Source: Candidatus Forterrea multitransposorum CG_2015-17_Forterrea_25_41
Lineage (GTDB): Archaea; Iainarchaeota; Iainarchaeia; Iainarchaeales; CSSED10-239
Assembly (NCBI GenBank): GCA_009392915.1
Contig: CP045477.1
Coordinates: 192,001 to 256,000, forward strand
Direction: 5' to 3'
DNA length: 64,000 nucleotides
Positions 18,828 to 58,269 of this stretch are shown in pieces. The notes under the pieces are model-generated. The model did no database searches. It was not told the origin of the DNA and saw only the letters and a program-made list of their open reading frames with translations. Both the position numbers and the translations under genes were made by a program. Position 1 is the stretch's first letter; every line of letters begins with the position of its first letter.

Positions 18828-18843
18828 TTATATTTTTTTAAAT

Positions 18844-18917: not shown

Positions 18918-18972
18918 CTTATAATATTTTTTAAAAATCTATTTAATAACTTAAATTTGTAATTACTTAATT

Positions 18973-23601: not shown

Positions 23602-23720
23602 ATTATTAAATATATTTAAGAAAATAGTTTAAAAGACTATGGTTTTTAAGTATTATGTTGGTTTTATAAAAATATAGGTTTTTAATATATTTATTGTTTA
23701 TTTAAATGAGATAATTAGAT

Positions 23721-24161: not shown

Positions 24162-24205
24162 TTTTTATTTTTTAAAAAAATAAGAAAAAAAAAGAGAAAG
24201 AAAAA

Positions 24206-24490: not shown

Positions 24491-24599
24491 AATTATTCAC
24501 TCTTTTTTTATAAATTTTAATTTTTAAATAAGTTGTTCACTCTTACTCTTATATAATATATATAAGCAAGCTTTAAAAACAAATTGTTTTTTAAAGAAT

Positions 24600-36384: not shown

Positions 36385-36606
36385 ATGGCTAATATGACTT
36401 TAAGTATACCTGATGATCTTTTAAAAGAATTAAAAAAACACTCTTATATTAAATGGAGTGAAGTTGCAAGAATTGCTTTTGAAGAAAAGGTAAGTGCTTT
36501 AGAAAGAATAGATGTTTTTAAAGAATTTCAAGAAGCTGAAAGAGATTTTAAAGATGGAAAAAGTATTTCTTTAGAACAATTAAAAAAGGAACTTGGTAAA
36601 AAATGA
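36385..36606 (+). CDS. Ribbon-helix-helix (CopG-like) small protein
   Basis: MANMTLSIPDDLLKELKKH... is a typical RHH beta-strand plus helix start. Its stop overlaps the next gene's start (ATGA, 36603..36606). Confidence 0.5.
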   Translation: MANMTLSIPDDLLKELKKHSYIKWSEVARIAFEEKVSALERIDVFKEFQEAERDFKDGKSISLEQLKKELGKK

Positions 36607-41362: not shown

Positions 41363-44300
41363 ATGGTTAAAGATAAAAATAATTTAGGCTCAAATGAAAA
41401 CAATGAAAATAAACAAAATATTTTTTCAAGATTTTATAATTATCTTGAAGATAAATATTCTTCTTTATCAAACTGGCTTACAGAAAAAGGAATACCATTA
41501 AATAATTTAAATAATTATTTAGAGGAAAAAGGACTTCCTGCTTTTGCAATAGTTGCATCTATTTTATTATTATTAATCTTTATAATTGTTTTCTTAATTA
41601 TCTTTTCTTTTTCCAGTCAATCAACATTAATTTTTTCTGTTAAAGATTATTCTGGACTTTCAATCAATGATGCTTTTTTAAAAATTACAAATAGTTCAGG
41701 TAAGGAAATCTTTTCAGGAACTGTAAATGATACTGATGTTAAAAAATTAAAATTAAAATTAGGAGAATTATATTCTTTTAAATCAACTAAAGATGGATAT
41801 CCTGATTTTTCAAAATCAATAACTATTACTGATAAAGATCAAAAAGTACAAATTACTTTTTCAGAATCAATTGAGTATGGTATATTAAGAATAAAATTAA
41901 TAGATAGAGATAATAAAGGAATAATTACTTCAGGAACTGCGATCGCAAGATATTCAATTAATAATGCTCCTGAGTCTACAGAAAACATTGTAAATATTGC
42001 AAATGAACATTTTATTACTTTAGAAGTTCCAATGAATAAAGATATTGAACTTTTAGTTAGTGCAGATGGTTATGAAGATTTTAAAGAAACAAATTTTAGA
42101 ATAACTTTAGAAAATCAAGAAAAAGTAATTGAAATGGATATTTCTTCTTTATCTTTTGAAGGTAAAAGTCAAGTTACTTTTGTTGTTTTAGATACAGAAC
42201 AAAATCCAATTGATGGTGCTTTAGTAAGCATATATAATCTTGGAGATGAATTATTAGATTCAAAAAATACAATTGATGGAAGAGCTTTATCTTTTATTGA
42301 TAGTGGTTCTACAATATCTTATAAAGTTGAAAAAGAAGGTTATAGAACATTTGTAAGTGATCCTGAAGTTTCTTTTAGAATTACAAAATCTGAAATAACT
42401 TATAATGTTACTTTAGAAGAGGGTGGAAATTTTTTAGATGTGTTTGTAAAATCTGGTTCTAATTTTTTAGCTCTTGGAGATGTTGCAATTACTGTTTATG
42501 ATTTAAATAATAATATTATTAATTCTGGAAATACAGATGATTTAGGAAATTTAAAATTAACTGGTCTTTCTGATAAAGCACCAATTGTTGTAACTGCTTG
42601 TAAAGAAGATTTCCTTTGTGAAAATTTAACAGTAGATCTTTTAGAAAAAAGTTCAGTTGAGTTTACTTTAGAAAGAATAGATGTAACAAATAGTGCTATT
42701 CTGTCTGTTTTTGTTGTTGATGAAAAAAATTTACCGATCTCAAAAGCTTTTATAAAAATCTATCAATTACTTGAAGATGATAAAGAAGTTCCATACAACA
42801 CATCTCTTCAAACTGATCTTACAGGTTCTCTTTCAATACCTCTAAGAGTTGGAGATTCTTTTATAGTTTATTCATTAGTTGGAGAAGTTCAATATTTTGA
42901 AGAAATTACAATTGATGCTTTAAGAGAAAATAAAATAATTTTTGTAATGGATAATGCTTCTAAAATAATTAAATTAGATCTTTATGATGAAAATGGTTTT
43001 AAACTTACTTCAGGTTCTTTACTTGTAAAAACAAAAGATGGAACTGTTCTTTTTGATGGTAATTTATCTGAAACTGATCAAATAAGTTTTATTTCAGAAG
43101 GCTATAAAGATTTATATGCTGAATACACAGATGTTAATGGTAATAAATCTTCAATTAATTTTAATGCTGATGAATCTGAGTCAGATGGATATATAAGACT
43201 TGATTTTAATAAAGAAGTTAATTTAACAGATTATCCTGTAATTGAGTTTTCAGGAATTGTAGATTCTAAAGGAGTTAAATCAAATTTTGTAACAATAGGT
43301 AAAGAATATTATTTAATTTTTGATGTTTTATTCCCAGAAAATACTTATAAAGGACAAGTACATATTAGAGCTGGTGATGATACTCAAGTTGATGTTGAAG
43401 AAATGAGTTATGGTATAACTGGTTTTTCTGCAATGGATATTTATGATTTTAAATATGGTACAACATATAATAGTTCTCCTCTTCCAGGTTTAATGAATAT
43501 TGATCTTTTAAATGAAGGTTCTTCTCAAGTTTTAAATAAATGGCTTGAACTTAAATGGAATAGTGATCTTCCTTTAGGTAATAAACAAATCAAAGTAAAA
43601 ATAAATGTTATAGATGATTCTTATTCAAAATTAACTTTTAAATATAGAACTTTATTTGAAGAAAATAAATTATACTATAGAGATCCAGTTGACTCTTTAT
43701 TAAACCAAAGTTATTCTTCATCTCAAAAAGGTGCTTTATATGCAGATACAAAAGAAGTAAATATTGATGTTTATAATGTTCCTTTAGATTGTGAAGGTTC
43801 TCAATGTTTGTCATATACTTTTATTGATTCAAAAGGAAATGAATTTTCAAAAAATGATTTCTATGCTGTAAGAGATGAAACTTATTTTTTAAAAGTTAGT
43901 CTTTATTCTTTAGATAATAAACAATTAGATCTTTTAGCAGAAACTTCAAAAAGTTTCCCTTTAATTTCATTTGGTTCTTTTTCAGATAATCTTTATCAAA
44001 ATGAAATAATAAATGATAATTCTTTATTTGAAATTTCAAGAGATGGTTTTTTACTTTCTGAAAATTCTTTAAAAAATATTTATCTTTCATTTATCTCAAA
44101 AGATATTGGTGCTGCATATATTGATCTTAAAGCAACAGATGTTATTTTAGGAAATGAAATTTTAAACAATAGATTAAGTTTTAATGTTTATGATAAAAAA
44201 GAAATGAATGTTTTAGTTTCTCCAAGTAATTATGTTGATTATGGATCAAATTTTACTGTTGATGTTTTAGATTCAGTTTCTCTTGAACCTATTACAGATG

Positions 44301-47300
44301 CTTTTATTTCTTTTTATGATGTTAGAGATACTTTTATTTCTTCTTTAAAACCAAGTAATTCAAATGGAAGGAATGGAAAATATACTATTACAAATAATTT
44401 TAATACTTCAACTGTTAAAATGGTAGTTGAAAGATATGGTTATCTTCCTTATGAAACTGAAATTTATATTATTGATAATACTTTATTAAATGCAATTCCT
44501 TCAGAAATAATTTTTAATTTAGGTCTTGACCAAACAGCATCAACTTCAAATTTTAGTTTAGAAAACTTAGGTAATTATCAAGCAACAAATGTAAGGTTTG
44601 GAGAACCTATTTGGATTGAAGGTAGTGCTGGTATTTATCTTGAAGGAAGAGGTAATCCAATAATTAATAAAAACTCAACTCAAAATTATCAATTGTTACT
44701 TACAACAGAAAATGATGTTGAACTTAAAACAGCATATGCACATCTTCCAGTATATGCATCTGTAGGTCCTAGAGAAGTTACAAAAATATTAAATGTTAGA
44801 ATAAATAAAGGTTTAATGTTAAATGAATGTGTTGAAATTACTCCTTCTGAAGTTTCTTCTTTTGTTGGACTAAATGTTTCTTCAAATTATGCAGATCCTT
44901 TTAATACTCCTTTTGCAGATTATGATTATACTTCAAATACTTCAAATAATCCTATGCTTGCACCTTCTCAAAGTTATTCTAATTATGAAGAATATTTAAA
45001 TTCAAGTGGATATAACATTACTGATTCAACAGATAATGGTTATACTTACACAGATTCTAAAAATTATACTTATCATGCAACTTCTCCTGCTCTTAATTCT
45101 CAAATTACTGAAAACACAACTTATTTTACAATTAAAAATAATTGTTCTCAAGCTATAACTTTTAATCCTCAAGCAGTTTTAACTTCTTCATCATCAAATA
45201 ATAATTTAGAAGTTTCTCTTGCAAACATAACTGTTCTTCCAGGAGAAGAAAAAGTTTATGATGTTATTTTAAAAAATTCATCTGAACTTAAAAGAAAAAC
45301 AACATATACCTATAATGTTTTATGGCATAATAATTATTATTCAATAGCTCCTTCAGTTTTAAATGTTGATCTTTTAGATTTAAGTAGAGCTTTATGGGTT
45401 ATGCCACAACAAATAAATATTCCAATCTCTCAAGTACATCCTCAACAAGCTGCTGAAAATTATACTAGATTTTTTATTAAAAATATAGGTGCTGTTCCAA
45501 TAACTGATATACAAATAAGTCAGTATCCAAAAATGGTGTCTTCTAATATTAAAATAACTGAATATCCAAGACAAGTATCTGTTTTAGAACCAGGAAAAAC
45601 AATTCCTGTTGATTTAAAATTTTCAGTAAATATTAATAAATCTACATTAGATAATGCCTTTATACAAGTAACTGGTAAAGCTGTTGGTATTAGTGAACCA
45701 ATTACTTCAACAACACAATTAGTGTTTTCAATTTCTTCTCCAAATTGCTTAAAAGTAAGTAATAAAAATATTAATTTTGATTTAGAAGTTGGGGAAACAA
45801 GAGCAAGAAATATTACAATTACAAATCAATGTTCTGAACCTGTTACAATAGTTGGAATTGATAAAAAACAACAAGGATATTATCAAGCATATGGGGATAA
45901 TTCTTTTAGAATAACTCCTGCTTCTGGTAATCCAATAATTCCTGTTAACATGTCAAATTCTTATAGAATAGAGTTTACTGCAAATTCTTTAGGTGGTTCT
46001 CCAAAAACACCAATGATACTTCAAGGTAGATTAATGAATTCAGGTAATCCTGTAACTTCAGAAGAGGTTTTAGTTTCAATAACTATAGATGATATAATGG
46101 TTGGAGAAGAAGCTGAAAGAAATATTTCTATTTTATCTTCTCTTCCTTCTTGTGAAGATCCACAAAATATTAATTCATATAATAGACCATTAATTTCAAT
46201 TAAAGATTGTTCTGAAACTTCAGGATATTGTGATGGAGAATCTTCAGCTGAATTAATTTTAAAAAAAGTAAATGAACTTCAAAATGAAATTAAACAATTT
46301 TCTGCACAAACACAATCAAAAGTAATTGATACTGGTTGTACTCTTCAAGATGCATATAGTGGTTTTTGTAAAATATCTGAACTTGGTGGAGGAATTGATC
46401 CTGTTGAGTTTTCTTTCTTTATGCAAAATGATAATGTTACACCTGATTTAATTAAATCTATTTTAACAAAATCAAATTATTCTTTTAAAAATTATTTTGT
46501 TGAAACAAATATTTTTAATAAAGAAATTAAAACTATAAATCAATATTCTTCTTATGGGGTATATGCTGGTGGAAATAAAATATTTGTATCTCCTCACCTA
46601 TCAGGTTGTGGAAAATATACAGTAGAGATTGATGGTTATGTTGCTGCAAGTCCAGATTATATTTATCCTGAAAGAGCATATTATTATATTAATGTTGTAG
46701 AAAAAGATACTAACACTATTCATTGTGAGAAAAATATTGTAAATTATTTAAATTATCTTCCATGGGATCTTTCTTTTAATAAAAACCAAAGAGCAGGAAC
46801 TTGGCTTACTTTATTTACTGGTGATGAAAATTTATCAAAAGCTTTAATTAAAAGTGTGGGTAAGTTTAAGTCAGATGAAATTGATTTAAGATATGTTTAT
46901 AATAAAGATGTTTTATCTACAAGAAATAGTACTTTAAATGTTTCAACTGGAGAGATTTCTGAAAATAAAGAAGCTCTTGCAAAAATTTCTTTTAATGATA
47001 CTTCTTTAAGAAAAAGCTCTTCTCCAGAACAAATAGATATTACTTTAAATTCTCTTTATAATTCTCCTGAAGGTAAAACTTCTGAGTATGCTGTTAAAGA
47101 TTTTTCAAAAGTAATTTCTTCAATGATTTCAGATAATGATTATTCTGCAAAAGTTTGTATTTCTGAAGATAAAACATATATGCTTGTTTTAGATGTTATT
47201 TCAGCAGGAGATTTAACTTTTGTTGATAAAGAAGTAAGTCTTCCTTTAAAGGATGGAGCTTCATGTTCTTTATTAAAAGTTAAATCATCAGTTCCTGAAA

Positions 47301-49378
47301 CTTTAAAGATTACTTCTGATTCTTTAGAGTTTGCAAATATTGGTTTTAAGAAAAATAAAGATGATACTCTTCAAGAGTCATTAGATATTAGTGTTATTGC
47401 AAATAAAGATTCTAACTTTTATATGTGTGTAACTCCAAATTCAGAGACTGCTATCTCAAGTCTTGTTGATAAAAAAATAACTGTAACAGCAACAAGTATT
47501 TATTCTGCAAGTGGTAGTATTGGAAATAGAAGCACAACTTCAGAAGTAGCTTTCTCTTCATGTGCAATCACACCTGAAGATTATCTTTTAGGTATTTATT
47601 CAAATATTTTAACTGAAAATAATAAAGCTGAAGATGATAGAATCTTACCTCAAAATTATACAGCTATTGTAGATTGGGATAAACAATATAATCCTGAAGA
47701 AAAAGAAAAATTATGTTCAACTTTACAAAAGATTGTAAATAGTAAAAAGTATAATGGAGAACTTTTCTTTGATTATGAAGTTTTAGGTTGTGAGATTGAA
47801 GATTCTTCACAAGAAAGAGATTCAAGAATAAGTAAAGGATTACATAATGCTGGACAATATTTCTTTTCTTGTTCAGGAGCTTGTGGACTTTGTTATGGTC
47901 TTTCAGGACTTATAATGCCTACACAATTTGTAGGTGCAATTGTTGATTGTTTAGGTTTCTCTTGTTTATTACCTTCATTAAATATATTTGCATCAAATCT
48001 ATCTAATGGAGAAGGTGGAATATCTTGGCTTTTAGATGAATTTTTTGGATTATTATTAAATGATGATGTTAGTTTCTTTTCAAATATTACAAGTGAGATT
48101 GAAACATGGGTAAGTGGTGTTTTAGGTGTTGGAGGAGCTGCAACAAGTGGAGCTTTAAAAGCTAATGCTGCTTCTGCTGCTGTACCTTTAGATCAAGTTA
48201 CTCAAGACTTAGTTTCACAATCTAGTTATGATCCTACAACACAACAAATATTAGATGATTTAGCAAATCCATCAACAACACCTGCTCCTGTAAATCCATC
48301 AACAACTTCTGGTGTAATTAATGGTTCTACTGAATTAAAAAATTTAAATAGTCAATTAAATAATTTAAATAGATATTTAAGTGGTAATGACAATATTAAA
48401 TTACAAACATTTTCAAACCCACAAGAAGCAGGTAGATTTAGTGATATCCTTAGAAAAATGAATCAAACATCTGGATCTAACTTTGATAAATTGAGATCTT
48501 TATCTACTCAAGAGTTTGATGATTTTGTAAATATTCTTGAAAAACAAAATTTTACAGGTAAAAATAGTCATTTATTCAAAAAAGACTTACTTATTAAAAG
48601 ATTAAAAGATGCTAAAGTAAATGATTTCAAATCAGTTTCAGCTGCAACTTCTTCAAGTGCAGCAGCTACATCTAGTAGTGCAGCTTCAGTTGCTGATGAT
48701 TTCTATGATTACCCTAAAGCAGATTATGATCAAGCAATTAAAAATTTTGATAATGATATTAAAATGCTTGATGATTCAATAAGTAATCTTGAAAATCAAA
48801 AAGCAGCAATTGAAACTAATGCAAAAAGATCATCTGCAAATCCTAAAAAAGCACTTCGTTATAAATCAAAAGTTGATGCTCAAATAAAAGCAATAGATAG
48901 TCAACTTGATGAACTTAAAAAAAGTAAAGATGCTCTTTCAAGTGTTAAATCTAAATTTGCTTCAGCTAAAAATGTAAATGGTACTTATAAAGTTCCAACT
49001 TCTGCAATTGATGATTTATCAAATAATATTCCAAAACAAGCAAAACTTAGCAAATTATCTAAATTTGCAAAAATTAAAGGTGTTGCAAAAAGCTTTGGAA
49101 GAGGCCTTCTTTGTGGTGCTACAGGAAATGCTGCAGGAATATATTCTTTAAAAGAAGAAGGTAAAACAGGACTTAATAAATCAATAGAGTTTTTAAGTAA
49201 AAATGATTTTGAGAAAAATATATTCTATGTTTCAGAAGTTGATATGTTATCTCCAGAAAATGATCAAGAATACGAAACAAGATATACAATTAATATAAAA
49301 CCTTATATCTCTCAAGATCAAAGTATTATTTCTTCAATTCCTACAAAAAGAATTGATTCTTGTACTATAGAAGAATAA
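41363..49378 (+). CDS. Giant surface protein A (2671 aa): N-terminal cytoplasmic motif + TM anchor, CarboxypepD_reg/PEGA-like beta-sandwich array, Cys-rich hydrophobic hairpin and coiled-coil C-terminal region
   Basis: An uninterrupted 8016-nt ORF. N-terminus: FSRFYNYLEDKYSSLSNWLTEKGIPLNNLNNYLEEKGLPAFAIVASILLLLIFIIVFLIIF. At least 6 repeats end in ..K(D/E)GY..F.. (KDGYPDFSKSITI, ADGYEDFKETNFRI, KEGYRTFVSDPEV, RYGYLPYETEIYI). Later IKNNCSQAITF and TNQCSEPVTIVGI sandwich starts. C-terminal FFSCSGACGLCYGLSGLIM...FVGAIVDCLGFSCLLPSL, followed by heptad-like segments. Confidence 0.9.
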   Translation: MVKDKNNLGSNENNENKQNIFSRFYNYLEDKYSSLSNWLTEKGIPLNNLNNYLEEKGLPAFAIVASILLLLIFIIVFLIIFSFSSQSTLIFSVKDYSGLSINDAFLKITNSSGKEIFSGTVNDTDVKKLKLKLGELYSFKSTKDGYPDFSKSITITDKDQKVQITFSESIEYGILRIKLIDRDNKGIITSGTAIARYSINNAPESTENIVNIANEHFITLEVPMNKDIELLVSADGYEDFKETNFRITLENQEKVIEMDISSLSFEGKSQVTFVVLDTEQNPIDGALVSIYNLGDELLDSKNTIDGRALSFIDSGSTISYKVEKEGYRTFVSDPEVSFRITKSEITYNVTLEEGGNFLDVFVKSGSNFLALGDVAITVYDLNNNIINSGNTDDLGNLKLTGLSDKAPIVVTACKEDFLCENLTVDLLEKSSVEFTLERIDVTNSAILSVFVVDEKNLPISKAFIKIYQLLEDDKEVPYNTSLQTDLTGSLSIPLRVGDSFIVYSLVGEVQYFEEITIDALRENKIIFVMDNASKIIKLDLYDENGFKLTSGSLLVKTKDGTVLFDGNLSETDQISFISEGYKDLYAEYTDVNGNKSSINFNADESESDGYIRLDFNKEVNLTDYPVIEFSGIVDSKGVKSNFVTIGKEYYLIFDVLFPENTYKGQVHIRAGDDTQVDVEEMSYGITGFSAMDIYDFKYGTTYNSSPLPGLMNIDLLNEGSSQVLNKWLELKWNSDLPLGNKQIKVKINVIDDSYSKLTFKYRTLFEENKLYYRDPVDSLLNQSYSSSQKGALYADTKEVNIDVYNVPLDCEGSQCLSYTFIDSKGNEFSKNDFYAVRDETYFLKVSLYSLDNKQLDLLAETSKSFPLISFGSFSDNLYQNEIINDNSLFEISRDGFLLSENSLKNIYLSFISKDIGAAYIDLKATDVILGNEILNNRLSFNVYDKKEMNVLVSPSNYVDYGSNFTVDVLDSVSLEPITDAFISFYDVRDTFISSLKPSNSNGRNGKYTITNNFNTSTVKMVVERYGYLPYETEIYIIDNTLLNAIPSEIIFNLGLDQTASTSNFSLENLGNYQATNVRFGEPIWIEGSAGIYLEGRGNPIINKNSTQNYQLLLTTENDVELKTAYAHLPVYASVGPREVTKILNVRINKGLMLNECVEITPSEVSSFVGLNVSSNYADPFNTPFADYDYTSNTSNNPMLAPSQSYSNYEEYLNSSGYNITDSTDNGYTYTDSKNYTYHATSPALNSQITENTTYFTIKNNCSQAITFNPQAVLTSSSSNNNLEVSLANITVLPGEEKVYDVILKNSSELKRKTTYTYNVLWHNNYYSIAPSVLNVDLLDLSRALWVMPQQINIPISQVHPQQAAENYTRFFIKNIGAVPITDIQISQYPKMVSSNIKITEYPRQVSVLEPGKTIPVDLKFSVNINKSTLDNAFIQVTGKAVGISEPITSTTQLVFSISSPNCLKVSNKNINFDLEVGETRARNITITNQCSEPVTIVGIDKKQQGYYQAYGDNSFRITPASGNPIIPVNMSNSYRIEFTANSLGGSPKTPMILQGRLMNSGNPVTSEEVLVSITIDDIMVGEEAERNISILSSLPSCEDPQNINSYNRPLISIKDCSETSGYCDGESSAELILKKVNELQNEIKQFSAQTQSKVIDTGCTLQDAYSGFCKISELGGGIDPVEFSFFMQNDNVTPDLIKSILTKSNYSFKNYFVETNIFNKEIKTINQYSSYGVYAGGNKIFVSPHLSGCGKYTVEIDGYVAASPDYIYPERAYYYINVVEKDTNTIHCEKNIVNYLNYLPWDLSFNKNQRAGTWLTLFTGDENLSKALIKSVGKFKSDEIDLRYVYNKDVLSTRNSTLNVSTGEISENKEALAKISFNDTSLRKSSSPEQIDITLNSLYNSPEGKTSEYAVKDFSKVISSMISDNDYSAKVCISEDKTYMLVLDVISAGDLTFVDKEVSLPLKDGASCSLLKVKSSVPETLKITSDSLEFANIGFKKNKDDTLQESLDISVIANKDSNFYMCVTPNSETAISSLVDKKITVTATSIYSASGSIGNRSTTSEVAFSSCAITPEDYLLGIYSNILTENNKAEDDRILPQNYTAIVDWDKQYNPEEKEKLCSTLQKIVNSKKYNGELFFDYEVLGCEIEDSSQERDSRISKGLHNAGQYFFSCSGACGLCYGLSGLIMPTQFVGAIVDCLGFSCLLPSLNIFASNLSNGEGGISWLLDEFFGLLLNDDVSFFSNITSEIETWVSGVLGVGGAATSGALKANAASAAVPLDQVTQDLVSQSSYDPTTQQILDDLANPSTTPAPVNPSTTSGVINGSTELKNLNSQLNNLNRYLSGNDNIKLQTFSNPQEAGRFSDILRKMNQTSGSNFDKLRSLSTQEFDDFVNILEKQNFTGKNSHLFKKDLLIKRLKDAKVNDFKSVSAATSSSAAATSSSAASVADDFYDYPKADYDQAIKNFDNDIKMLDDSISNLENQKAAIETNAKRSSANPKKALRYKSKVDAQIKAIDSQLDELKKSKDALSSVKSKFASAKNVNGTYKVPTSAIDDLSNNIPKQAKLSKLSKFAKIKGVAKSFGRGLLCGATGNAAGIYSLKEEGKTGLNKSIEFLSKNDFEKNIFYVSEVDMLSPENDQEYETRYTINIKPYISQDQSIISSIPTKRIDSCTIEE

Positions 49379-49487
49379 TTCTTTTCTTTTTTTATTTTTT
49401 TAGTAAAAAGAAATATATAAAAATATAAACATCTTATTTATATTAGTTAATATAATATATTAAAGATATAATTGGTGTTATCTAATC

Positions 49488-51167
49488 ATGTTAAGAAATA
49501 AAAAAGGATTTAATTTATTTACTGCTTTAATCTCATTGATGCTTTTATCAATAACTCTAGTTTTTATTTTTAATATGGTTCAAACTGAAGAAAATTATTT
49601 AGAATTAATAAATAATCAATCTCAAGCTTCTGACCTCTTAACAATTGCAGATATTTCAAGAGCTGATGCTTTTAATAATTTTGTTGTTTCTTTTAGAGAA
49701 CAATGGATGTCTTTTAGAAGTGATCCTCGTTCTGAAATCATACTTAAAAGAAAAGATATTATGCTTGATTGGGATGGTTTTGTAGATTATTTTGCAGATT
49801 ATATTTTCTTTGATAATAGTTTTGAAAATTATTTTGCAGATAATATGGTTAGATCTTTAAATTATACAAATCCACCAACAGGTTATGCAATAAATGTTCC
49901 TAATTATTCTCGTGATGATTTATCTAGTATTATTAAAACAGCTTTTCTTGAAGCTGGAGATGATAAAATAAAAGTTGTAAGTTGTGAAAGAGAAGATGAG
50001 GTTTGTTTAGGTACACTTTATTTTACAATTGATACTAGAAAACTTTCTGCACAAGAATATGAAAAACTTCCAATGATAACTGTTAAAAGAAATGTTGATG
50101 ATGAAGTTATTCAAAGACCAGTTTTTGCAAAAAGAGCATACAGGATATATATTCCCTGGAGAGGTTTTCAAGCTTTAAGGACTGTTAGAAATTTTGCACT
50201 TGATGCTGATCTTGAAAAAGGAGAAACAACAGCTCAAATTATTGAATATTCAAAAGATTCAAGAGGTTTTTTAAACCCCTATATTCATTATACTCTCAAT
50301 AGTGCAAAACTTGGTGTTTGTGATATTGATAGTTGTGCTCTAAGAAAAGATTTATTTAAAACTGTTGAGTTTAATGGGTTTACTGGAGATGCATGTTCTA
50401 ATCCGCCTGGAGTTAGTAATGTTTCTGACAATGGAGGAATTACTGGATCTTTTACTGGAGAAGTTTCTCTTTCTAATAATCATAGTTACAATATTCAAGA
50501 TATAGATGGAACTGTAAAACCTATATATAATGATTTAGTTAAAACAACTATAGAAAACAATTTAGAATATAGAACTGATATAATACATGCAGGAAATAAT
50601 TTGCCATCAATCTCTTCTTCTTCAATTTTAGATGATGAATGTCAAATGTCTTTAACAACTGGAAATTTTTCAATATGTGATATACGTGTAAGACTTCCTT
50701 CTCCAAAAGTTACAAAAGAAGTTATTTCTGTAGGAACTGTTTCAGAATCTTTAAGTAGTTTATCTCAAGTTTCATTCAATCCTTCTGGTAGTTTTAATAA
50801 AGCTTCAAACTTAAGTCTCTCTATTGATGATGATTTAAATATTAATGTTTTTGATCAAGAAAGTACTATTCCTAATGAAACTGATAATCAATATCTATCA
50901 TGTACAACAATTGACTATATTGATTTATTATTTAAATTTGAAGAACAAGATGAAAAGTATATTTTTTCTCAAGATTCTAAAAATATTTATATTTTAATTC
51001 AAGATAGATTTTCAGATTATACTTTCTTTAATTCATTTGGAAGCGTTCCTAACTTTAGTGGAGGATATTTTCAAAAAAGAGAACTTCCTTCATTTACAGG
51101 AGGACAAGGTTGGACTTGTAAAAGTTATGAAGCAAATGAAGATGATGCAGCATGTGTTGCAGGTTAA
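49488..51167 (+). CDS. Large pilin-like protein (class III signal peptide), 559 aa
   Basis: N-terminus MLRNKKG/FNLFTALISLMLLSITLVFIFNMV. The rest is polar with scattered Cys residues. It is embedded between giant genes A and C. The SD GGTG is at 49474..49477. Confidence 0.75.
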   Translation: MLRNKKGFNLFTALISLMLLSITLVFIFNMVQTEENYLELINNQSQASDLLTIADISRADAFNNFVVSFREQWMSFRSDPRSEIILKRKDIMLDWDGFVDYFADYIFFDNSFENYFADNMVRSLNYTNPPTGYAINVPNYSRDDLSSIIKTAFLEAGDDKIKVVSCEREDEVCLGTLYFTIDTRKLSAQEYEKLPMITVKRNVDDEVIQRPVFAKRAYRIYIPWRGFQALRTVRNFALDADLEKGETTAQIIEYSKDSRGFLNPYIHYTLNSAKLGVCDIDSCALRKDLFKTVEFNGFTGDACSNPPGVSNVSDNGGITGSFTGEVSLSNNHSYNIQDIDGTVKPIYNDLVKTTIENNLEYRTDIIHAGNNLPSISSSSILDDECQMSLTTGNFSICDIRVRLPSPKVTKEVISVGTVSESLSSLSQVSFNPSGSFNKASNLSLSIDDDLNINVFDQESTIPNETDNQYLSCTTIDYIDLLFKFEEQDEKYIFSQDSKNIYILIQDRFSDYTFFNSFGSVPNFSGGYFQKRELPSFTGGQGWTCKSYEANEDDAACVAG

Positions 51168-51297: not shown

Positions 51298-54200
51298 ATG
51301 GGTCTTAGATCTTTTTACTTTAAACAAGAAGAAAAATATTTTAATTTTCTAGACAGGATGGAGAAAAAAGGAATTAATCTATACAAAATAATAGATCCTT
51401 TAGAAAAGAATGGTATACCTACTTTTTTAGTATTTAATATATTTATTCTACTTTTAATTTTATTTTTAGTTTATTTATTTGTTGGACAAACTCCATTAAC
51501 TGATGAAAACTACACTTTAACTTTTGTAAATTCTCAAGACCAGCCAATCTCAAATCAAGCAATTGAAATTCTTCTTAATAACAATAGAAAGATTTTAACA
51601 ACTAATGAATTTGGAATTTCAGAAATTACTGATGTTGAAATTAAATCTTATGATTTAGAAATAAGTAGTGAAAAGTATACTCTTGAAAATCCATTAACTT
51701 TAGATTTTAAAGAAAACACTTCTCATAAAATATTTTTAAAATCAAAAACTTCTGTTTTATCAAAAACTATATATTTTAAAACAAATAATGAATTATATAA
51801 TTCTCCATTAACAATTTCAAATATTTCTTGTTCAAATAATTCTCTTTATACAAAAAATAATCTTCAAACAAATGATGGTTCTTTAACTTTAGATGATATT
51901 CCTACAGATTGTGGATATTTAGAAGTTGCTATTGAATCTTCAACAATTAATGCTGTTGGTTCTTTAGAAGTTTCAGAAGACTCTCCTTCTGGAGATATTG
52001 ATTTAAGTTTTGAAGGTGTTGAAACTGGAAGTGCAAAAATAATTATTCTTGATAAAGATTTAAAAGTGCCTATTCAAAACATAAGTATTTCTATTCTTAA
52101 TAATCAAAGTCAAATTGTAACTTCTTCAATAACAAATGCAAATGGTATAGCATCTTTTGAAGAAATAAATGTTGGAACATATAATCTTTTAATCTATGAT
52201 GAAGAAGAAAGATACAAGCCAGTAACTGAAAATGAAAGTTTAGAACTTGTAGTATATGATTCTGTTTTAGAAGAAAAAGAAGTTCTTTTAGAAAAAGCAT
52301 TCATTGGTAAATTAAATTATAAAATTATTGATACTCAAAGTAAAGAAGCTATTGAAAATGTAGCTGTAACAATATACAAAGGAAATGATATTTTAAAAAC
52401 AATTAATTCAAATAAAGAAGGCGATGTTTCTTTTGGTGTTGAAGAAAATATTTCTTATAAAGTTTTATTTAATCATCCTAATTATATAATAAGAACTGAA
52501 AATAATCAAAGAATAAGTGAATCTATTAAACAAATTGCCTTAACTCCAATAACAAATGAAAATTTAAGAAGTTTAGTTATTACTGTTGTTGATGATTTTG
52601 CAAAACCTGTTGATTTTGCAACCATAAGATTATGGGATGATACTGAAGATATTATTCTTAGAACAATAACAGCTGATATTTATGGTAAAGCTGTTTTTAC
52701 AAATTTAGATTTAGGTAAAGAATATAGACTTGATGCAACTAAAGATCAATTTACTTCAAATCCTACAAATCCTTTTAGAATCTCAGAACAAGAAATAACT
52801 GAAGAAACTATAAAGATGAGTATAGGTGAAGGAACTTTTAATATTAATTTAGTTTCTGAGTATGGAGAGTTCTATCAAGGAAATGTATATGTTTATGATG
52901 CAACAAATGATACTTTAATGCAAGATAAAACCACAACAACAAACCAAGATGGTTTTACAATAATAAAGATTAGAGCTGATAAACAAATTTATTTTGTTAT
53001 TGATAATTTAGATTCTAAATTTATAACTCCAAAGTATTCAACAAATGCAAATGAAATAAATACTTTAAATTTTACAATTCCAGGAACTGTTGGGCAAACA
53101 TCTGGTATTGAATTTTTAGGTTTTTATAATGCTGAAGGAGAAAAAATAAATTCAGTGGCTGCAGGTATGCAAGTTACTGCTAAATATTTATTAAATGTTA
53201 CAAAAGAATATTCTAAAGCAGTTGCACATATAAGAACTGGAGAAGTTCCAAGTCCTTTATGTTCTTCAAACACATATAATGTTTTAGAAGATTTAATTTT
53301 TATAAAAGATGTACGTTATGCAAAATCTGATAAGATCGGTTCATTAACTTTTACTCCATGTAATGGAGAAGGTATTGATTTTTCAAATAAAACTTTAAGA
53401 AATGCAAAATGGTTTAATTTAACTTTAAATAATCCAATGCAAGGAAGTTATTTAATTGAAGCAGATGTTGTTGTTTTAGATACAGCTTTTGCAAATCAAG
53501 CTTTAAACTATAGAGCAGAGTTTTATCAAGGTTCAAGTATTATAAGATCACCTGTTGATTCTTCTTATAGTTCTTCAACAAGTAAACAAAATTTATATGC
53601 TCAAGCAAAACAAGTTCAATTATTTTTAGGAACTCAAAATCAATGTACTTCACTTATGTGTTATGCATTTATTATGACAAATACACAAAATAATTTATCT
53701 AGAAATATAATTGATAGTTATAAAGCTAAATTAAATAATGATTATAGACTTTCATTTAGTTTAAATGTTTTAGATGGAAAAATTGCACCAAACTCAATGC
53801 TTGTAATCTCTTCAGGTAGTTCTGTTGATTTAGATGGTTATTCTATTACTTCAGGAACTGGTTCTCTTTTAGTTGGAGAGGATTATGATGGAATTGATTT
53901 AGGTTCTTTAGTTTCAAATGATTTAATAACTGGAGAGCTTGCTTTTAAAGTAATAGATGATGTTTCTGATGTTTTAGACTTTTCAATAGTTTCTAATGGA
54001 GAAGTTGTATTCTCTAAAAAAATATATCTTGAAATTGATCCTGCAAAAGAAATGTTTGTAGAGTTTGTTCCAAGAAAAATTGTTCCTTTTGTTTCAAATG
54101 ATTTACTTGTTGTTGTAACTGATGATTCTAATAATTTTATTTCAAATGCAATTGTTGAACTTTCAATTAATGATAGAAGTTTAACTGTAGGTTCAACTAA

Positions 54201-57200
54201 TCAAGAAGGATTATTTGGTCATGTAATTCCAGCAACTGATCTTGGAGATGTTTTAAAGATTGTTGTAAAGAAAGATGATTATAAAACAGTTAAAACAGAA
54301 ATTGTAATTGATGATAAATTAATCACAACAATTCCTGAAAAAATTGATTTAACAATTGATTCTTCAAAATCAATAAGAGAAGTTTATAATTTTAGTTTAT
54401 ATAATGAATCTTATGTTCCTTTAACAATTGTTTCTGCATCAGCATTTACTGATAATGAATTTGTTGATCTTGATTTAGGTATTGAAGAAAATATCATAAA
54501 TGGTGTTTCTCAAAATGATATTTCTCTAACAGCAACATTAACAGATAAAGGTATTAATCTTTATAATCAACAAACAATTAATACAGAAGTTGCAATTAAA
54601 ATTAAAAGTGAAGAAATGAATAAAACTTGGGTTATTACAGTTCCATTAACTGTTAGAATAGTTTTAGGAAATTCTCTTGATTCTCTTGAATGTTTAAAAG
54701 TTCTACCTCTTGAAGGAACAATTAGAGCTAAATCTCAAGAAACAAAAACTTTAGATTTTACTTTAGAAAACACTTGTACTTCAAAGAATGTTTCTGTTGA
54801 TTTAGGAACTATTAATGCAATGGTTGATTGGGGTAATGAATCTGAAACTGGACTTTTATCAATTGTTGTTTCTGGTAAAGAATATATTTTAGAAAACTTA
54901 ACTGAAACTGAAATATTATCAACTCTTTTAAAGAAATCAAAAACAACTTTACAATTAAAGTTTAAAGCGCATAAAATAGTTTCAGATGTTAAAATACCAA
55001 TTATTTATTTTACTTCAAAGAAAGGAAATATTAATGGTGTTGATGAAGTTAAAACAAGACTTCCCTTAAAAACAATTATTAATGATTATTCAGAATGTAT
55101 TGAGATCCCAAGAGAGACAATTCCTGCTCTTGCATGTAATTGGTATTCTGGACTTAATAACTATGGTAATTATTATGGTGGAGTAAACCAAGGAGGAGCT
55201 TTCAATAATCCTTATTATGGTGGAAATAATTTTAATGCAACATATAATCCTAATAACCAATTTAATTCTAGAAATTACTATCAACAAGGTTCTGGTTATG
55301 TTACACAACAACAAGGTGTTTTTAATCCAAATTATAATTTAGTGGGACAAACAAATTATACAGGAAATCAAAATTCTGTGTTTAACCCTTATAATTTCCC
55401 TTCCTCACAATATCAAAATACTTTTGGAAATTATGATAGTTATAATTTTACATCAGGTTATCCTCAAGGTAACTATGGAAACATGGGTTTTACAAATAAC
55501 ATGAATTGTCCAACAAGACCATTTTATATTAAAAATAATTGTTCTGAAGCTGTTGATATTAAACTTGATTCAATATATGGTTTAACAATTGCAACAGATA
55601 AAGAATTTACAATAGAACCTGGAGATACAGAAGAGATTAGTGTTTTAGGTGGAGAGTCTATGGGTACTTTTAAAATACCTGTAAATGCAAAAGCATCTCT
55701 TGCATCTAATGAAAATTATTCAACAATTGGAGATGTTTTATTTTCTTTAACATTACCAATTAGTTTTATGTCTTCAAATTGTATACAAGTAACTCCTCAA
55801 AAATTAGATTTTTCAAATATTATTGATCCTAACTATCAACTTGTAAAAGTAATTAATACTTGCTTTGCACAAGGATACAGAATAGTTGAAGTTAATTATC
55901 TTGATTTAATTTCACTTGACTTTGATGGTGTATCTTTCTTAAATGTAGGAGATATGCAAGGAAGAATTCAACCAATTAAAGTTGATACTTTAACAAATAC
56001 AACTACAAATGAACCAATGGAAGTTTGGGAAATTGCATTAAGAAGAAATCCTGAAATTGAAAATACTAAGTCTGTAAAAGAGTATATGAATAAATATTCT
56101 GATTATTCTTTAGCTGCTGGTGTTATTTCTTCATTTAGAAAAATATTAATTGATGTTGAAGACGCAGTTAACTTAAAGTTTTCTTTACAAGTTGGACTTC
56201 AACCACCAACAGGACAAGCTTCACTTATCTATAATAATATAGGTATGGAACTTAAGGATAATTTCCAATGGTTAATTTTAGATAATCCTGATAATATAGG
56301 TCTTTTAAAAGATTTATTTGGTGATGAAGCTATTAGTGATGAAGAAATTTCATTTATTGATACTTCTGTAAAATTAACATATACCCTTGATCCTAATAAC
56401 AATGCAGTTATTATTAATGTTCCTGAAGGAGAACTTGCTGCAGATAAATTCACACAAATTGATCAAGACCCTACAAGTAAAAGATGTTTCTATGGATATG
56501 TTAAAGATTTCCCTATAACTGGTATTGTAGATACTTCATATATACAAAACTCTGGTAAATATTATTTAAATAATAAATATGATCCATTAGATGTAAGTCT
56601 TGAATTTATTACTAGAAATAAAAATATCTTTAAATTATGTTTTGAAAGACCAGTTGAATCATTTGATAATATTTTAGCTACAAATGATAATTACAATATC
56701 TTAGATTTATTTAAAACAAGTAAAGATTCTCTTACAAACCAAAACTTTGAGATTTGGAGAATTTTAGATACTACAAATAAAGGTAAATACCAAGGTAGTA
56801 CTTTAATTGGTGTAAAAGCTGATGTTTCAACAAAAGAAGTTGGCTCTAAAGAAGAGGGTGACTCTGGAAAAACTGATCCTTCTCAAACAACAGATGATTC
56901 TTTAGTTTGTCTTGCTCCTGACCTTTCAACAAATCTTGGACATACAGGTTCTAATGTTTATTCTCAATATGGATTTGATAAAATATTACTTGATTACTTA
57001 CCAGAAGATATTACAGATTCTTCTTGTGAAGATTATTTCTGTGATCAAGAACAATTCTATAATTTCTTAACAAAGAAAGCAGATAAATTAAAAGAAGTTA
57101 CTTCAAATAGTAATTATATAAATATTAATGGTATTTATTTTGAAAAAGAAAATAATACTATTAAAGAATCAAAAGTAAAAGTAGATCTTTGTGCAAACGG

Positions 57201-58269
57201 CGTTTGTGATGGCTTTGATGTTTCTGGTAAAGAAACTTTAAATGATTATATAAATCAAGCAAATAAAGTTTTAAATGCTGTTCCAGCAGACTTAAAGAAA
57301 ATAACAATCATTAAGACTAAAGGTTTAACTACTAATGGAAATAAAATTGTAACAATTGGTGATTATCAATATACAACTGTTGATTATTTCTTAGAAAATT
57401 ATGATTCTTTTGAGAACAAAGCAATAGTTTATGCAAACATGGATGTATACTTTGGATCTTCTCCTCAAGTATTCAGTTCTAACCTTAAGAAATTTTCTGG
57501 TAGTTCTGAAGATTTAAATAAAAAAATCTTAGCAAACTTTAATAATACTTTAACAAGTAACTATACAATTGAGTATGCTGAGGCTGTAAATATTTCAAAA
57601 CCAGGAACTTATACAACAGTTATTTCTCTTGAAAATATAGATTCTCAAAATAAAAGAAAAATAAATTTAACAATAGGTTCTAAAGTTTCTGAGATTAGTG
57701 AAGAATATAGTAAAAATATTTTATTTACATATCCAATTAATCCTGAATATACAATGAAAGAAAAGAGTGATAAATATAATGCTCCTTTCATTAAGAATAA
57801 AAATTATACTTTAATTGATTATCCTTCAGAAATTATACAAGATGGATATATCTTTAAGTTTGAGGATATGGCAAATTATGATTTTATTGATTCAAGACCA
57901 TTTTATTTCAATAAACCATATAGTTTTAAGATTATTGAAACTAATGAAAATAATACAGAGCTTGATTTAATAGAAAATAAAGCAAGTTTATTCTTACTTA
58001 AAGATAGAACAAATAAAAAGATTAGTTTGTATTCAAAACCACAAATTACAAGTCAAGATACAAAGAATAACACTGTCTTTTTAAAAACAACTACTAATAA
58101 TAATTATATGATATATAATTTACAAATGAATAATGTTTTACCAAAATTAACATATTCATCAATGAAAGATGTATTTAATGAAATTAAAAACGAGAATGTA
58201 TGTTTCAATATAACTGAAGGAACAACTCCTGAACTTATGTTGTGGCATAATCCTGAAAAATTTAAATGA
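51298..58269 (+). CDS. Giant surface protein C (2323 aa), paralog of A and D
   Basis: An uninterrupted 6972-nt ORF. N-terminus: MGLRSFYFKQEEKYFNFLDRMEKKGINLYKIIDPLEKNGIPTFLVFNIFILLLILFLVYLF. It has a beta-sandwich array (KDDYKTVKTEIVI and others), an N/Q/Y/G-rich low-complexity segment, and IKNNCSEAVDIKLD, ENTCTSKNVSVDLG and INTCFAQGYRIVEV module starts. Confidence 0.9.
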   Translation: MGLRSFYFKQEEKYFNFLDRMEKKGINLYKIIDPLEKNGIPTFLVFNIFILLLILFLVYLFVGQTPLTDENYTLTFVNSQDQPISNQAIEILLNNNRKILTTNEFGISEITDVEIKSYDLEISSEKYTLENPLTLDFKENTSHKIFLKSKTSVLSKTIYFKTNNELYNSPLTISNISCSNNSLYTKNNLQTNDGSLTLDDIPTDCGYLEVAIESSTINAVGSLEVSEDSPSGDIDLSFEGVETGSAKIIILDKDLKVPIQNISISILNNQSQIVTSSITNANGIASFEEINVGTYNLLIYDEEERYKPVTENESLELVVYDSVLEEKEVLLEKAFIGKLNYKIIDTQSKEAIENVAVTIYKGNDILKTINSNKEGDVSFGVEENISYKVLFNHPNYIIRTENNQRISESIKQIALTPITNENLRSLVITVVDDFAKPVDFATIRLWDDTEDIILRTITADIYGKAVFTNLDLGKEYRLDATKDQFTSNPTNPFRISEQEITEETIKMSIGEGTFNINLVSEYGEFYQGNVYVYDATNDTLMQDKTTTTNQDGFTIIKIRADKQIYFVIDNLDSKFITPKYSTNANEINTLNFTIPGTVGQTSGIEFLGFYNAEGEKINSVAAGMQVTAKYLLNVTKEYSKAVAHIRTGEVPSPLCSSNTYNVLEDLIFIKDVRYAKSDKIGSLTFTPCNGEGIDFSNKTLRNAKWFNLTLNNPMQGSYLIEADVVVLDTAFANQALNYRAEFYQGSSIIRSPVDSSYSSSTSKQNLYAQAKQVQLFLGTQNQCTSLMCYAFIMTNTQNNLSRNIIDSYKAKLNNDYRLSFSLNVLDGKIAPNSMLVISSGSSVDLDGYSITSGTGSLLVGEDYDGIDLGSLVSNDLITGELAFKVIDDVSDVLDFSIVSNGEVVFSKKIYLEIDPAKEMFVEFVPRKIVPFVSNDLLVVVTDDSNNFISNAIVELSINDRSLTVGSTNQEGLFGHVIPATDLGDVLKIVVKKDDYKTVKTEIVIDDKLITTIPEKIDLTIDSSKSIREVYNFSLYNESYVPLTIVSASAFTDNEFVDLDLGIEENIINGVSQNDISLTATLTDKGINLYNQQTINTEVAIKIKSEEMNKTWVITVPLTVRIVLGNSLDSLECLKVLPLEGTIRAKSQETKTLDFTLENTCTSKNVSVDLGTINAMVDWGNESETGLLSIVVSGKEYILENLTETEILSTLLKKSKTTLQLKFKAHKIVSDVKIPIIYFTSKKGNINGVDEVKTRLPLKTIINDYSECIEIPRETIPALACNWYSGLNNYGNYYGGVNQGGAFNNPYYGGNNFNATYNPNNQFNSRNYYQQGSGYVTQQQGVFNPNYNLVGQTNYTGNQNSVFNPYNFPSSQYQNTFGNYDSYNFTSGYPQGNYGNMGFTNNMNCPTRPFYIKNNCSEAVDIKLDSIYGLTIATDKEFTIEPGDTEEISVLGGESMGTFKIPVNAKASLASNENYSTIGDVLFSLTLPISFMSSNCIQVTPQKLDFSNIIDPNYQLVKVINTCFAQGYRIVEVNYLDLISLDFDGVSFLNVGDMQGRIQPIKVDTLTNTTTNEPMEVWEIALRRNPEIENTKSVKEYMNKYSDYSLAAGVISSFRKILIDVEDAVNLKFSLQVGLQPPTGQASLIYNNIGMELKDNFQWLILDNPDNIGLLKDLFGDEAISDEEISFIDTSVKLTYTLDPNNNAVIINVPEGELAADKFTQIDQDPTSKRCFYGYVKDFPITGIVDTSYIQNSGKYYLNNKYDPLDVSLEFITRNKNIFKLCFERPVESFDNILATNDNYNILDLFKTSKDSLTNQNFEIWRILDTTNKGKYQGSTLIGVKADVSTKEVGSKEEGDSGKTDPSQTTDDSLVCLAPDLSTNLGHTGSNVYSQYGFDKILLDYLPEDITDSSCEDYFCDQEQFYNFLTKKADKLKEVTSNSNYININGIYFEKENNTIKESKVKVDLCANGVCDGFDVSGKETLNDYINQANKVLNAVPADLKKITIIKTKGLTTNGNKIVTIGDYQYTTVDYFLENYDSFENKAIVYANMDVYFGSSPQVFSSNLKKFSGSSEDLNKKILANFNNTLTSNYTIEYAEAVNISKPGTYTTVISLENIDSQNKRKINLTIGSKVSEISEEYSKNILFTYPINPEYTMKEKSDKYNAPFIKNKNYTLIDYPSEIIQDGYIFKFEDMANYDFIDSRPFYFNKPYSFKIIETNENNTELDLIENKASLFLLKDRTNKKISLYSKPQITSQDTKNNTVFLKTTTNNNYMIYNLQMNNVLPKLTYSSMKDVFNEIKNENVCFNITEGTTPELMLWHNPEKFK

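Follow-up and report, generated by a model that had tools for sequence, protein, structure and literature searches.

Several described systems resemble the protein reported here. Modular type IV pilins, such as PilB and PilC of Streptococcus sanguinis, are widespread in bacteria (including CPR) and reach up to 860 aa; a location at the pilus tip has been deduced for them. CofB/TcpB adaptor minor pilins and the minor pilins that present PilY1 are pilin-type proteins that display a non-pilin protein at the surface. GspK/XcpX and PilX-type minor pseudopilins/pilins also count among the closest known systems. In archaea, the sugar-binding proteins of the Sulfolobus bindosome are processed by PibD. 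A life dependent on other cells is assumed for DPANN archaea such as Ca. Forterrea. The giant surface proteins of DPANN archaea have been highlighted as probable agents of cell-cell contact (PMC5905446).

The window is the whole stretch of Ca. Forterrea DNA that was analysed, 64,000 nucleotides long. Within it, the gene of a pilin-like protein is located between two giant genes, in the following arrangement.

41363..49378, + strand: giant A, 2671 aa, upstream partner, with an N-terminal cytoplasmic motif, one transmembrane anchor and a predicted extracellular remainder
49474..49477, + strand: GGTG Shine-Dalgarno-like element, 10 nt before the ATG, read from the sequence
49488..51167, + strand: gene of the pilin-like protein with a predicted class III signal (NCBI NCP72245.1, annotated only as 'hypothetical protein')
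51298..58269, + strand: giant C, 2323 aa, downstream partner, with an N-terminal motif of the same type and a transmembrane anchor
58297..63900, + strand: giant D, 1867 aa, next gene of the cluster, distantly paralogous to giant C (23% identity over ~1370 aa)

The ORF at 49488-51167 is genuine, starts with ATG and encodes 559 aa. No further in-frame start lies upstream, because the ORF list uses the first start after a stop. The preceding sequence reads as the stop codon of giant A followed by a T-rich tract, and the GGTG element is complementary to CACC at the 3' end of archaeal 16S rRNA. The preliminary description of this DNA had assigned the gene its own Shine-Dalgarno element and a position between giants A and C; the position was confirmed, and the GGTG is a candidate for the element. 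It had also called the protein unusually large. The length of 559 aa stood; the exceptional size did not, since other class III-like proteins of this window reach 802 and 1102 aa, and 559 aa falls within the known size range of proteins with class III signals. Giant C contained CarboxypepD_reg, SdrD_B, SpaA-type prealbumin-like and Ig-like (Big_1) domains. NCBIfam gave no match for the three giants. Outside the window, the cluster goes on with the genes of a secreted protein (964 aa) and of another giant of at least 2351 aa.

We found the family gene in 74 species-representative genomes, almost all from Iainarchaeota, including AR10 and Ca. Iainarchaeum andersonii. A flanking giant, defined as a same-strand ORF of ≥ 1000 aa, was present upstream in 47 of the 54 evaluable loci among the species representatives (median gap 94 nt) and downstream in 50 of them (median gap 166 nt). 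The flanking giants at species-representative loci were 2,200-3,100 aa long, and a third large ORF came next in most loci. Moreover, five further metagenomic contexts (32-57% identity) had the gene between giants in every case. All three genes of the arrangement occur together in roughly 45 genomes. The synteny with the giants is therefore conserved across genomes, and the phylum-wide gene order supports the earlier proposal that the protein functions with them. As the gene sits between two giants in dozens of genomes, the protein is very probably a dedicated part of the giants' cell-surface, possibly host-contact, apparatus; gene order alone cannot tell a structural partner from, for example, an assembly factor. 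The family comprises ~217 sequence clusters and occurs essentially only in Iainarchaeota (Diapherotrites, DPANN archaea). Both the protein family and the giant / pilin-like / giant arrangement are new.

The 559-aa protein was divided into the following parts.

49488..49508, + strand: predicted leader MLRNKKG (7 residues), with K at -2, G at -1 and a putative cleavage site after G7
49509..49577, + strand: hydrophobic alpha1-N segment F8-M30 (FNLFTALISLMLLSITLVFIFNM), the sole membrane-spanning stretch by Kyte-Doolittle
49515..50207, + strand: pilin-like N-terminal module, residues ~10-240
50208..51032, + strand: variable C-terminal module, residues ~241-515, helical and then beta-rich
51111..51155, + strand: C-terminal motif W542-x-C544 ... 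C556, with W542, C544 and C556 invariant in 21 homologues

The N-terminus, MLRNKKG-FNLFTALISLMLLSITLVFIFNMV-QTEE, shows the features of a class III signal, that is, a basic -2 position, Gly/Ala at -1 and a hydrophobic stretch right after the predicted site, and our home-made class III rule scan was positive. The basic-Gly-hydrophobic layout recognised earlier (MLRNKKG/FNLFTAL) thus holds, and its motif is kept family-wide. In the Kyte-Doolittle scan, residues 7-33 held the only hydrophobic segment, and the remainder was polar, in line with the more than 500 polar residues described before. Site conservation was scored over 122 diverse family members (22-93% identity). Position -2 was basic in 118 of them (K in 70, R in 48), position -1 was G in 85 and A in 37 with nothing else, and position +1 was F in all 122. 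L at +3 (114 members), F at +4 (120) and A at +6 (118) were almost as constant; position +5 was occupied by T in 112 members and S in 10, with Glu in none. In the numbering of the 559-aa protein, F8 is invariant, and L10, F11, T12 and A13 are kept in ≥ 90% of members. The leader is short, usually 3-10 aa across 70+ homologues. The N-terminus is the best-conserved part of the family, with an entropy of 0.81 bits at positions 5-14 vs 2.5 bits in the globular part. The pattern is not due to chance, because it is kept across the whole family. Judged from the sequences, the [KR][GA]/F motif is characteristic of a site for prepilin peptidase (class III), and the leader would be removed after Gly7.

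The genome also encodes a candidate enzyme for this step. The preliminary description had named its absence as what would refute the reading, and the gene had escaped it. The contig carries a Peptidase_A24 gene 7.5 kb to the left of the window (positions 20981-21832 of our locus L010; PF01478 41.3 bits, cut-off 26.5, E 2.3e-10). Its product, of 283 aa, carries both catalytic Asp motifs, WTDYK and GGGDVK. A tblastn search with this peptidase against all loci matched the source contig alone.

The family-wide conserved core spans residues ~5-240. In the models, a helix is followed by an alpha/beta domain; pLDDT was 92.2 over residues 1-300 and dropped to 74.7 over the whole protein. AlphaFold predicted a single unbroken helix from residue 10 to 78, with pLDDT of 94-97 over residues 11-50. 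Within the N-terminal module, this helix is followed by an inserted helical region (88-155), five main beta-strands (within 161-222), a short strand (133-136) and a C166-C173 pair. The pilin-like head had fold neighbours of the GspK, PilX and PilE type; the similarity was weak, and Foldseek returned no match against the PDB at E ≤ 0.001. A PDB sequence-profile search gave a chance match alone (E 1.8). The length of the C-terminal module differs between lineages, with whole proteins of ~350-670 aa, and neither Pfam nor Foldseek recognised a domain or fold in it. The tail (residues 516-559) had pLDDT below 50, and the motif located there may form a disulfide loop. The protein has 10 Cys, of which 8 are invariant among 21 close homologues; these invariant Cys, together with the single hydrophobic segment, point to an extracellular character. 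N-glycosylation sequons were not enriched (9 observed vs 6.8 ± 2.3 in shuffles).

Searches with family models pointed in the same direction, at scores below threshold. The ComGF minor-pilin model (NCBIfam NF041002) matched 53 of the 94 members searched, within the N-terminal 50 residues, and further sub-threshold matches were to the pilin models ComGE (8 members), ComGD (4) and ComGC (2); no unrelated family recurred. The score of the 559-aa protein against ComGF was 16.3 bits, below the cut-off of 80, and the best E among the 94 members was 5.7e-5. Pfam gave no consistent family for the protein and the 94 members. None of the 94 matched the Pfam N_methyl motif, as G/F[NT]LF is present and Glu at +5 is absent. 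Pilin-model scores so far below the curated cut-offs, the missing N_methyl match and Thr/Ser instead of Glu at +5 all count against the reading that we favour below.

Compared with the modular pilins, the protein shares a short leader ending in Gly, a hydrophobic stretch (~21 residues in the known proteins) and a small pilin module joined to a bulky extra module; in the full-length model, these correspond to the N-terminal module and a second region at 240-515. The modular pilins, however, belong to IPR012902/N_methyl with Glu at +5, they are encoded together with pilus machinery and not between giants, and the extra module here is without a recognisable fold. ComGF is the only recurrently matched family, through the leader and alpha1 region, but it is a bacterial protein of ~140 aa, and the resemblance (~16 vs 80 bits) ends after the first 50 residues. 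By analogy, the presentation of non-pilin proteins by CofB/TcpB or by the PilY1-presenting pilins is the closest functional parallel for a pilin-like protein tied to adhesin-like giants. The 559-aa protein has no sequence or significant fold similarity to them, and its putative partners are membrane-anchored proteins of 2,000-3,000 aa, whereas theirs are secreted or form a beta-propeller.

Pilus machinery was searched for in the window and around the homologues. Pfam scans of the 34 window ORFs agreed with the preliminary description in finding no pilus assembly ATPase, platform protein or prepilin peptidase in the window, and a six-frame scan of the window revealed no T2SSE Walker A motif. 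Neither an assembly ATPase gene nor a platform gene was present within 10 kb of the family gene at 85 loci (1.37 Mb). The six-frame search of the same 1.37 Mb for a T2SSE/FlaI Walker A motif gave SRP54 as the sole match. We observed four other class III-like N-termini in the window, which had escaped the first inspection.

155-3463, - strand: class III-like N-terminus
3463-3993, - strand: class III-like N-terminus
4006-6414, - strand: class III-like N-terminus
33122-33367: 81-aa ORF with a class III-like N-terminus

The 81-aa ORF was considered as the major pilin of the cluster and rejected, as no comparable small class III ORF occurred in 70+ other loci. With hhalign, the family profile proved unrelated to two of the class III-like window proteins, those of 176 and 802 aa, which also counts against our favoured reading, as do the absence of linked pilus machinery and of an accompanying small major-pilin gene elsewhere.

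These observations bear on whether the protein is a true filament subunit, that is, a minor, tip-located modular pilin whose ATPase, platform and major pilin are encoded elsewhere. We regard this as possible, though only tentatively so. The class III signature and the pilin-like head with its GspK-, PilX- and PilE-type neighbours agree with it, models place bulky modular pilins at the tips of filaments, and CofB is a precedent for a pilin that serves another protein as adaptor. The other class III proteins of the window could be co-subunits, and ultrasmall groundwater cells bear pili-like appendages. On the other hand, in the 10-kb neighbourhoods, no ATPase, platform or major pilin was linked to the gene in any genome, and no sequence kinship to the other pilin-like proteins of the window was detected. 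Under this explanation, the giants might be neighbours presented by the pilus or merely co-regulated with it, a relationship that is likewise conceivable without being the likelier one.

A somewhat doubtful explanation is that the protein is processed by PibD without being a pilus component, as has been proposed for the bindosome, so that its N-terminal helix would stay in the envelope and an oligomeric assembly would form with the giants. Non-pilin proteins of 500-600 aa are among the substrates of archaeal A24 peptidases, and the gene occurs in single copy and lacks a neighbouring major pilin. Its retention throughout the phylum, also in members that are putatively free-living, suggests that the structure belongs to the core of the envelope. 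The Sulfolobus sugar-binding proteins resemble the 559-aa protein in being archaeal, in their [KR][GA] site, in their size of 500-600 aa and in being held at the surface by the N-terminal helix; cleavage is known there and predicted here. They differ in being solute-binding proteins of ABC transporters, whereas the present protein has no such fold and is linked to giants, not transporters.

The protein might instead be an uncleaved type II signal-anchor that has no part in prepilin processing and serves the giants as accessory subunit or assembly factor. The loci without pilus machinery, the plain N-terminal anchors of the giants themselves, the sub-threshold pilin-model matches and the weak fold similarity are all compatible with such an anchor. 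Nevertheless, a plain anchor demands hydrophobicity and not a particular sequence, and here positions -2, -1 and +1 to +7 are nearly invariant. The alternatives seen at -1 (G/A) and -2 (K/R) are exactly those tolerated by prepilin peptidase. In the same 44 genomes, the entropy of positions +1 to +8 was 0.30 bits per site vs 2.36 in the transmembrane anchors of the neighbouring giants, which are thus ~8 times more variable per site. With an A24 peptidase retained in the genome as well, we consider an uncleaved anchor unlikely. The preliminary description had named an ordinary Sec signal or an uncleaved anchor as what would overturn its reading; judged by rules and conservation, the N-terminus resembles neither, with its 23-residue hydrophobic stretch, nearly invariant site and low entropy. 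The peptidase gene and the conserved synteny speak against the other two refutations named there, and the preliminary reading is supported. We regard an ordinary secretory protein of the Sec type (class I), cut after the hydrophobic region (e.g., after the small residue 23), as highly improbable. Although the N-region is basic and column 23 is always small (T in 45, A in 30 and S in 28 members), the rule-based inspection found neither a polar c-region nor a helix breaker, the hydrophobic run is longer than the 7-15 residues of a Sec h-region and extends to residue 30, the confidently predicted helix passes through the site uninterrupted, and conservation is highest at the start of the hydrophobic region, not at its end.

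The explanation that we favour, and consider probable, assigns the protein to a new family of modular, type IV pilin-like proteins and makes it the dedicated partner of the flanking giants. It would be inserted into the membrane N-in/C-out, and the PibD/FlaK-type A24 aspartic peptidase of the genome would cut off the 7-residue leader after Gly7. Phe8 would then head a helix of ~70 residues, with the first 23 residues in the membrane or packed against other helices. At the cell surface, the remainder of the helix would bear the disulfide-stabilised pilin-like head and the C-terminal module, which varies between lineages. There the protein would work with the two giants of the neighbouring genes, surface proteins anchored by their N-termini. 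It would most likely act as a membrane-proximal anchor/adaptor, or as the unit that primes or tips a short stalk resembling a pilus. In either role it would organise the giants, or present them, within a structure of the cell surface or for cell contact. Cleavage, location at the surface, binding to the giants and the formation of any filament are what we infer from these data.

That a prepilin-type protein accompanies the giants across a phylum offers a testable handle on how these giants are organised. A small and conserved subunit, probably processed by a peptidase, is suited to tagging, expression, complex modelling and searches of cryo-ET maps. The defined family of ~217 clusters, whose members are now only 'hypothetical', could enter domain databases. 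The modular-pilin idea would be extended from bacteria to DPANN archaea. As a more speculative thought, and a doubtful one, the triad may be the core of an unrecognised surface organelle of Iainarchaeota that lacks a conventional pilus operon. It is similarly questionable, if conceivable, that in such an organelle one prepilin-processed protein acts as nucleus or anchor for a stalk- or fibre-like structure built from two membrane-rooted proteins of 2,000-3,000 aa. If this were true, the organelle would serve envelope architecture or host contact, and the type IV pilin module would have a new use, not as a subunit of filaments but as the keystone in assemblies of giant proteins.

The pilin-like gene lies exactly where the preliminary description had placed it, and a T-rich tract was found 3′ of the stop codon of the gene upstream. 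The identical protein is listed at NCBI as NCP72245.1, "hypothetical protein [archaeon]", and the gene goes unmentioned in the published description of Ca. Forterrea multitransposorum. The window has a G+C content of ~ 25% and contains archaeal markers: the RuBisCO large subunit and a ribosomal protein L44e-like ORF, the latter picked by eye in the translation. The cluster, as read from the sequence, comprises:

41363-49378, 2671-aa ORF (giant A), upstream of the pilin-like gene; N-terminal motif region 41363-41600
49474-49477, + strand, GGTG element, 10 nt 5′ of the pilin-like ATG
49488-51167, + strand, pilin-like ORF, ATG start, 559 aa
51298-58269, 2323-aa ORF (giant C), downstream of the pilin-like gene; N-terminal motif region 51298-51490
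58297-63900, 1867-aa ORF (giant D), next after giant C; N-terminal motif region 58297-58470

The protein begins with MLRNKKG-FNLFTALISLMLLSITLVFIFNMV-QTEE and has a sole hydrophobic segment (residues 7-33), the rest being polar. According to reviews, archaeal prepilin peptidases chiefly recognise a basic residue at -2 and Gly or Ala at -1, before a hydrophobic domain. Among 122 diverse family members, position -2 was Lys in 70 and Arg in 48, position -1 was Gly (85) or Ala (37) and no other residue, and +1 was Phe in every one. Leu occupied +3 in 114 members, Phe +4 in 120, Thr or Ser +5 in 112 and 10, respectively, and Ala +6 in 118. The mean entropy at positions 5-14 was 0.81 bits, compared with 2.5 bits in the globular part. 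A Pfam scan of 94 members turned up no recurring family; the ComGF minor-pilin model produced sub-threshold matches in 53 of the 94, each independent and within the first 50 residues, and the only other recurrent model families were further ComG and Gsp pilin models.

A word-indexed search returned 22 homologues (32-100% identity, 529-606 aa), none with a Pfam domain, from MAGs labelled "Candidatus Iainarchaeum", "Diapherotrites" or "ainarchaeum". The profile search of 1.84 billion representatives yielded 217 cluster representatives at E ≤ 0.001, of which 102 were at ≤ 1e-30. The common core spans profile positions ~ 5-240, followed by a variable C-terminal part, in full proteins of ~ 350-670 aa. 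Scanning one genome per species gave 74 loci, nearly all in Iainarchaeota, among them one in the closed AR10 genome and one in Ca. Iainarchaeum andersonii. Four contigs (L035, L036, L039, L040) labelled Falkowbacteria, Chloroflexota/Chloroflexi or Thaumarchaeota bear the same giant/pilin-like/giant arrangement and motifs as Iainarchaeota and are probably binning errors.

The full-length structural model, built from 21 sequences, had pLDDT 74.7 and pTM 0.74, whereas residues 1-300 modelled with 122 sequences reached pLDDT 92.2. The predicted elements were:

residues 10-78, helix
residues 88-155, helical insertion
residues 133-136, 161-164, 176-182, 196-201, 207-211 and 217-222, strands
residues 226-271, helices

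Type IV pilins and pseudopilins (PilE, Shewanella pilin, EpsI/GspI, PilA5, ComP, TTHA1218, TTHA1222, GspK/XcpX, PilV, PilX) recurred among the low-rmsd fold neighbours, accounting for 16 of the 60 best hits with the full model and 9 of 60 with the truncated one. This is weak but consistent support, and no proof, for a head of pilin type that insertions have enlarged. The C-terminal module (~ 241-515) had no recognisable fold. The tail (516-559) was modelled poorly, yet holds the invariant W542, C544 and C556; eight of the ten cysteines in the protein are invariant in 21 close homologues.

Conserved gene order is the best argument for a joint function of the pilin-like protein and the giants. 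In all contexts examined at 33-57% identity, the gene was flanked by giants of 2,645-3,096 aa and 2,307-2,470 aa, with a third large gene after the downstream one. Among evaluable species-representative loci, 47/54 had an upstream ORF of ≥ 1000 aa on the same strand, no more than 4.5 kb away, and 50/54 had one downstream; giants occurred on both sides in 32/40, and some of the exceptions can be put down to ORF calling or to short contigs. Median intergenic distances were 94 nt upstream and 166 nt downstream. The synteny holds phylum-wide.

Giants A, C and D each have a cytoplasmic N-terminal segment of ~ 45-65 residues, then a single transmembrane helix, and contain CarboxypepD_reg, prealbumin-like (SpaA, SdrD_B), Ig-like (Big_1) and macroglobulin-type domains. 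Just before the anchor, the giants on either side carry a common motif found throughout the phylum, Y..LEDKYY..D.L..KGIPVY...D..E...IPSFP (also in relatives' loci L013-L085), which had no family match in Pfam or NCBIfam scans and might serve for docking or targeting. Giant A orthologues (window 49300-49378; L012-L084) finish in conserved short tails, R[IVL]D.C plus a few residues in close relatives and W..[FY]..[AS][ST] in distant ones; possibly these make contact with the product of the gene directly downstream. In a distant relative (L004 648-9938), the 3096-aa orthologue carries an NLPC_P60 cell-wall peptidase domain, a hint that the wall of another cell is a substrate of at least some giants. 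To the right of the window (L011), the cluster goes on with a 964-aa Sec-signal protein (15642-18536) and giant F of at least 2351 aa (18552-25604), whose C-terminal part is 33% identical to residues 540-813 of the former. Distant paralogy links giants C, D and F (22-23% identity); giant A had no similarity to them detectable by BLAST.

In L004 and L007, the gene immediately upstream of giant A encodes LemA (Pfam), and many other genomes (L015, L018, others) have an ORF of similar size (~ 180-195 aa) at this place. In the window, LemA (33490-34041, +) is 7 kb from giant A, separated by genes for a metallo-beta-lactamase-fold protein, an M48 peptidase, NurA (36603-37673), two secreted proteins, a 111-aa membrane protein and a possible weak HTH-like protein (all matches sub-threshold). 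Apart from NurA lie a HerA/DUF87-type ATPase gene (20402-22924, -; weak Zot match), split by an intein with a LAGLIDADG endonuclease, and, upstream and overlapping, a 226-aa membrane-protein gene (22921-23601, -). In at least three genomes, giant A is separated from the pilin-like gene by an AAA_14/DUF4143 ATPase gene, possibly mobile or selfish, with 25-42% identity to the copy at window 10996-12267:

L006 8545-9912, AAA_14/DUF4143
L079 2331-3632, AAA_14/DUF4143
L083 8651-9922, AAA_14/DUF4143

As previously described, the window contains no prepilin peptidase. One is encoded on the same contig:

L010 (left extension) 20981-21832, Peptidase_A24, 283 aa, 7.5 kb left of the window edge, PF01478 E 2.3e-10

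It scored 41.3 bits (cut-off 26.5), has both aspartate motifs (WTDYK and GGGDVK) and sits between the MFS transporter and SRP54 genes, outside any pilus operon. When the window and 85 loci (1.37 Mb) were translated in six frames, no T2SSE/FlaI-type Walker A motif was seen, the sole match being SRP54, in line with the assembly ATPase reported missing from the window. No A24 peptidase was linked to the giant cluster in other genomes and no small class III ORF accompanied it; the pilin-like gene is therefore an "orphan" in a giant-protein cluster, not a pilus-operon member. The window has other class III-like genes:

155-6414, - strand, gene 1, 802 aa, RG/ASEILSY, two Laminin_G_3, weak DUF7289 match
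155-6414, - strand, gene 2, 176 aa, KG/AANLFSY
155-6414, - strand, gene 3, 1102 aa, KG/VTSLFSG, Laminin_G_3, PKD, Gly_rich_2
33122-33367, + strand, 81-aa ORF, MPSKRQKG/MVLISVIATALF..., C-terminal C-x5-C

The three successive genes look like lectin-type modular pilins, the commonest architecture among bacterial modular pilins, and no ATPase or platform gene adjoins them. Beside the first and third products, 559 aa is not exceptional, contrary to the "unusually large" of the preliminary description. The 81-aa ORF is a possible mini-pilin gene; in other genomes, the surroundings of the giant cluster yielded no counterpart.

It is possible, if unlikely, that the protein serves as tip pilin in a pilus whose other genes lie elsewhere, and a bindosome-like assembly is rather doubtful. 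An uncleaved anchor is improbable, because positions +1 to +8 are far more constrained (0.30 bits per site) than the downstream giants' transmembrane anchors (2.36 bits), both taken from one set of 44 genomes. A Sec protein is highly improbable, since the hydrophobic run covers 23 residues without a polar c-region and the model helix is unbroken. The [KR][GA]/F conservation and this entropy control support the class III layout, with its predicted cleavage site.

Class III signal proteins are already known, as are modular pilins. New are the unannotated family, its extremely conserved N-terminal motif, and its location, without adjacent pilus machinery, between giant surface proteins across Iainarchaeota (47/54 upstream, 50/54 downstream). 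The reading of a pilin-like protein tied to the giants is supported; its processing, assembly and binding we infer. In the best-supported picture, it would insert into the membrane, the A24 peptidase would remove the leader after G7, and the alpha1-N segment would be retained or packed helix-helix, as is established for proteins with class III signals, among them substrates other than pilins (the Sulfolobus binding proteins, for example). Useful parallels are the modular pilins of bacteria, CofB as an adaptor pilin, and complexes of minor pilins presenting PilY1. In a last step, proposed solely from synteny, a disulfide-stabilised head and variable module would be displayed, cooperating with the two flanking giants.
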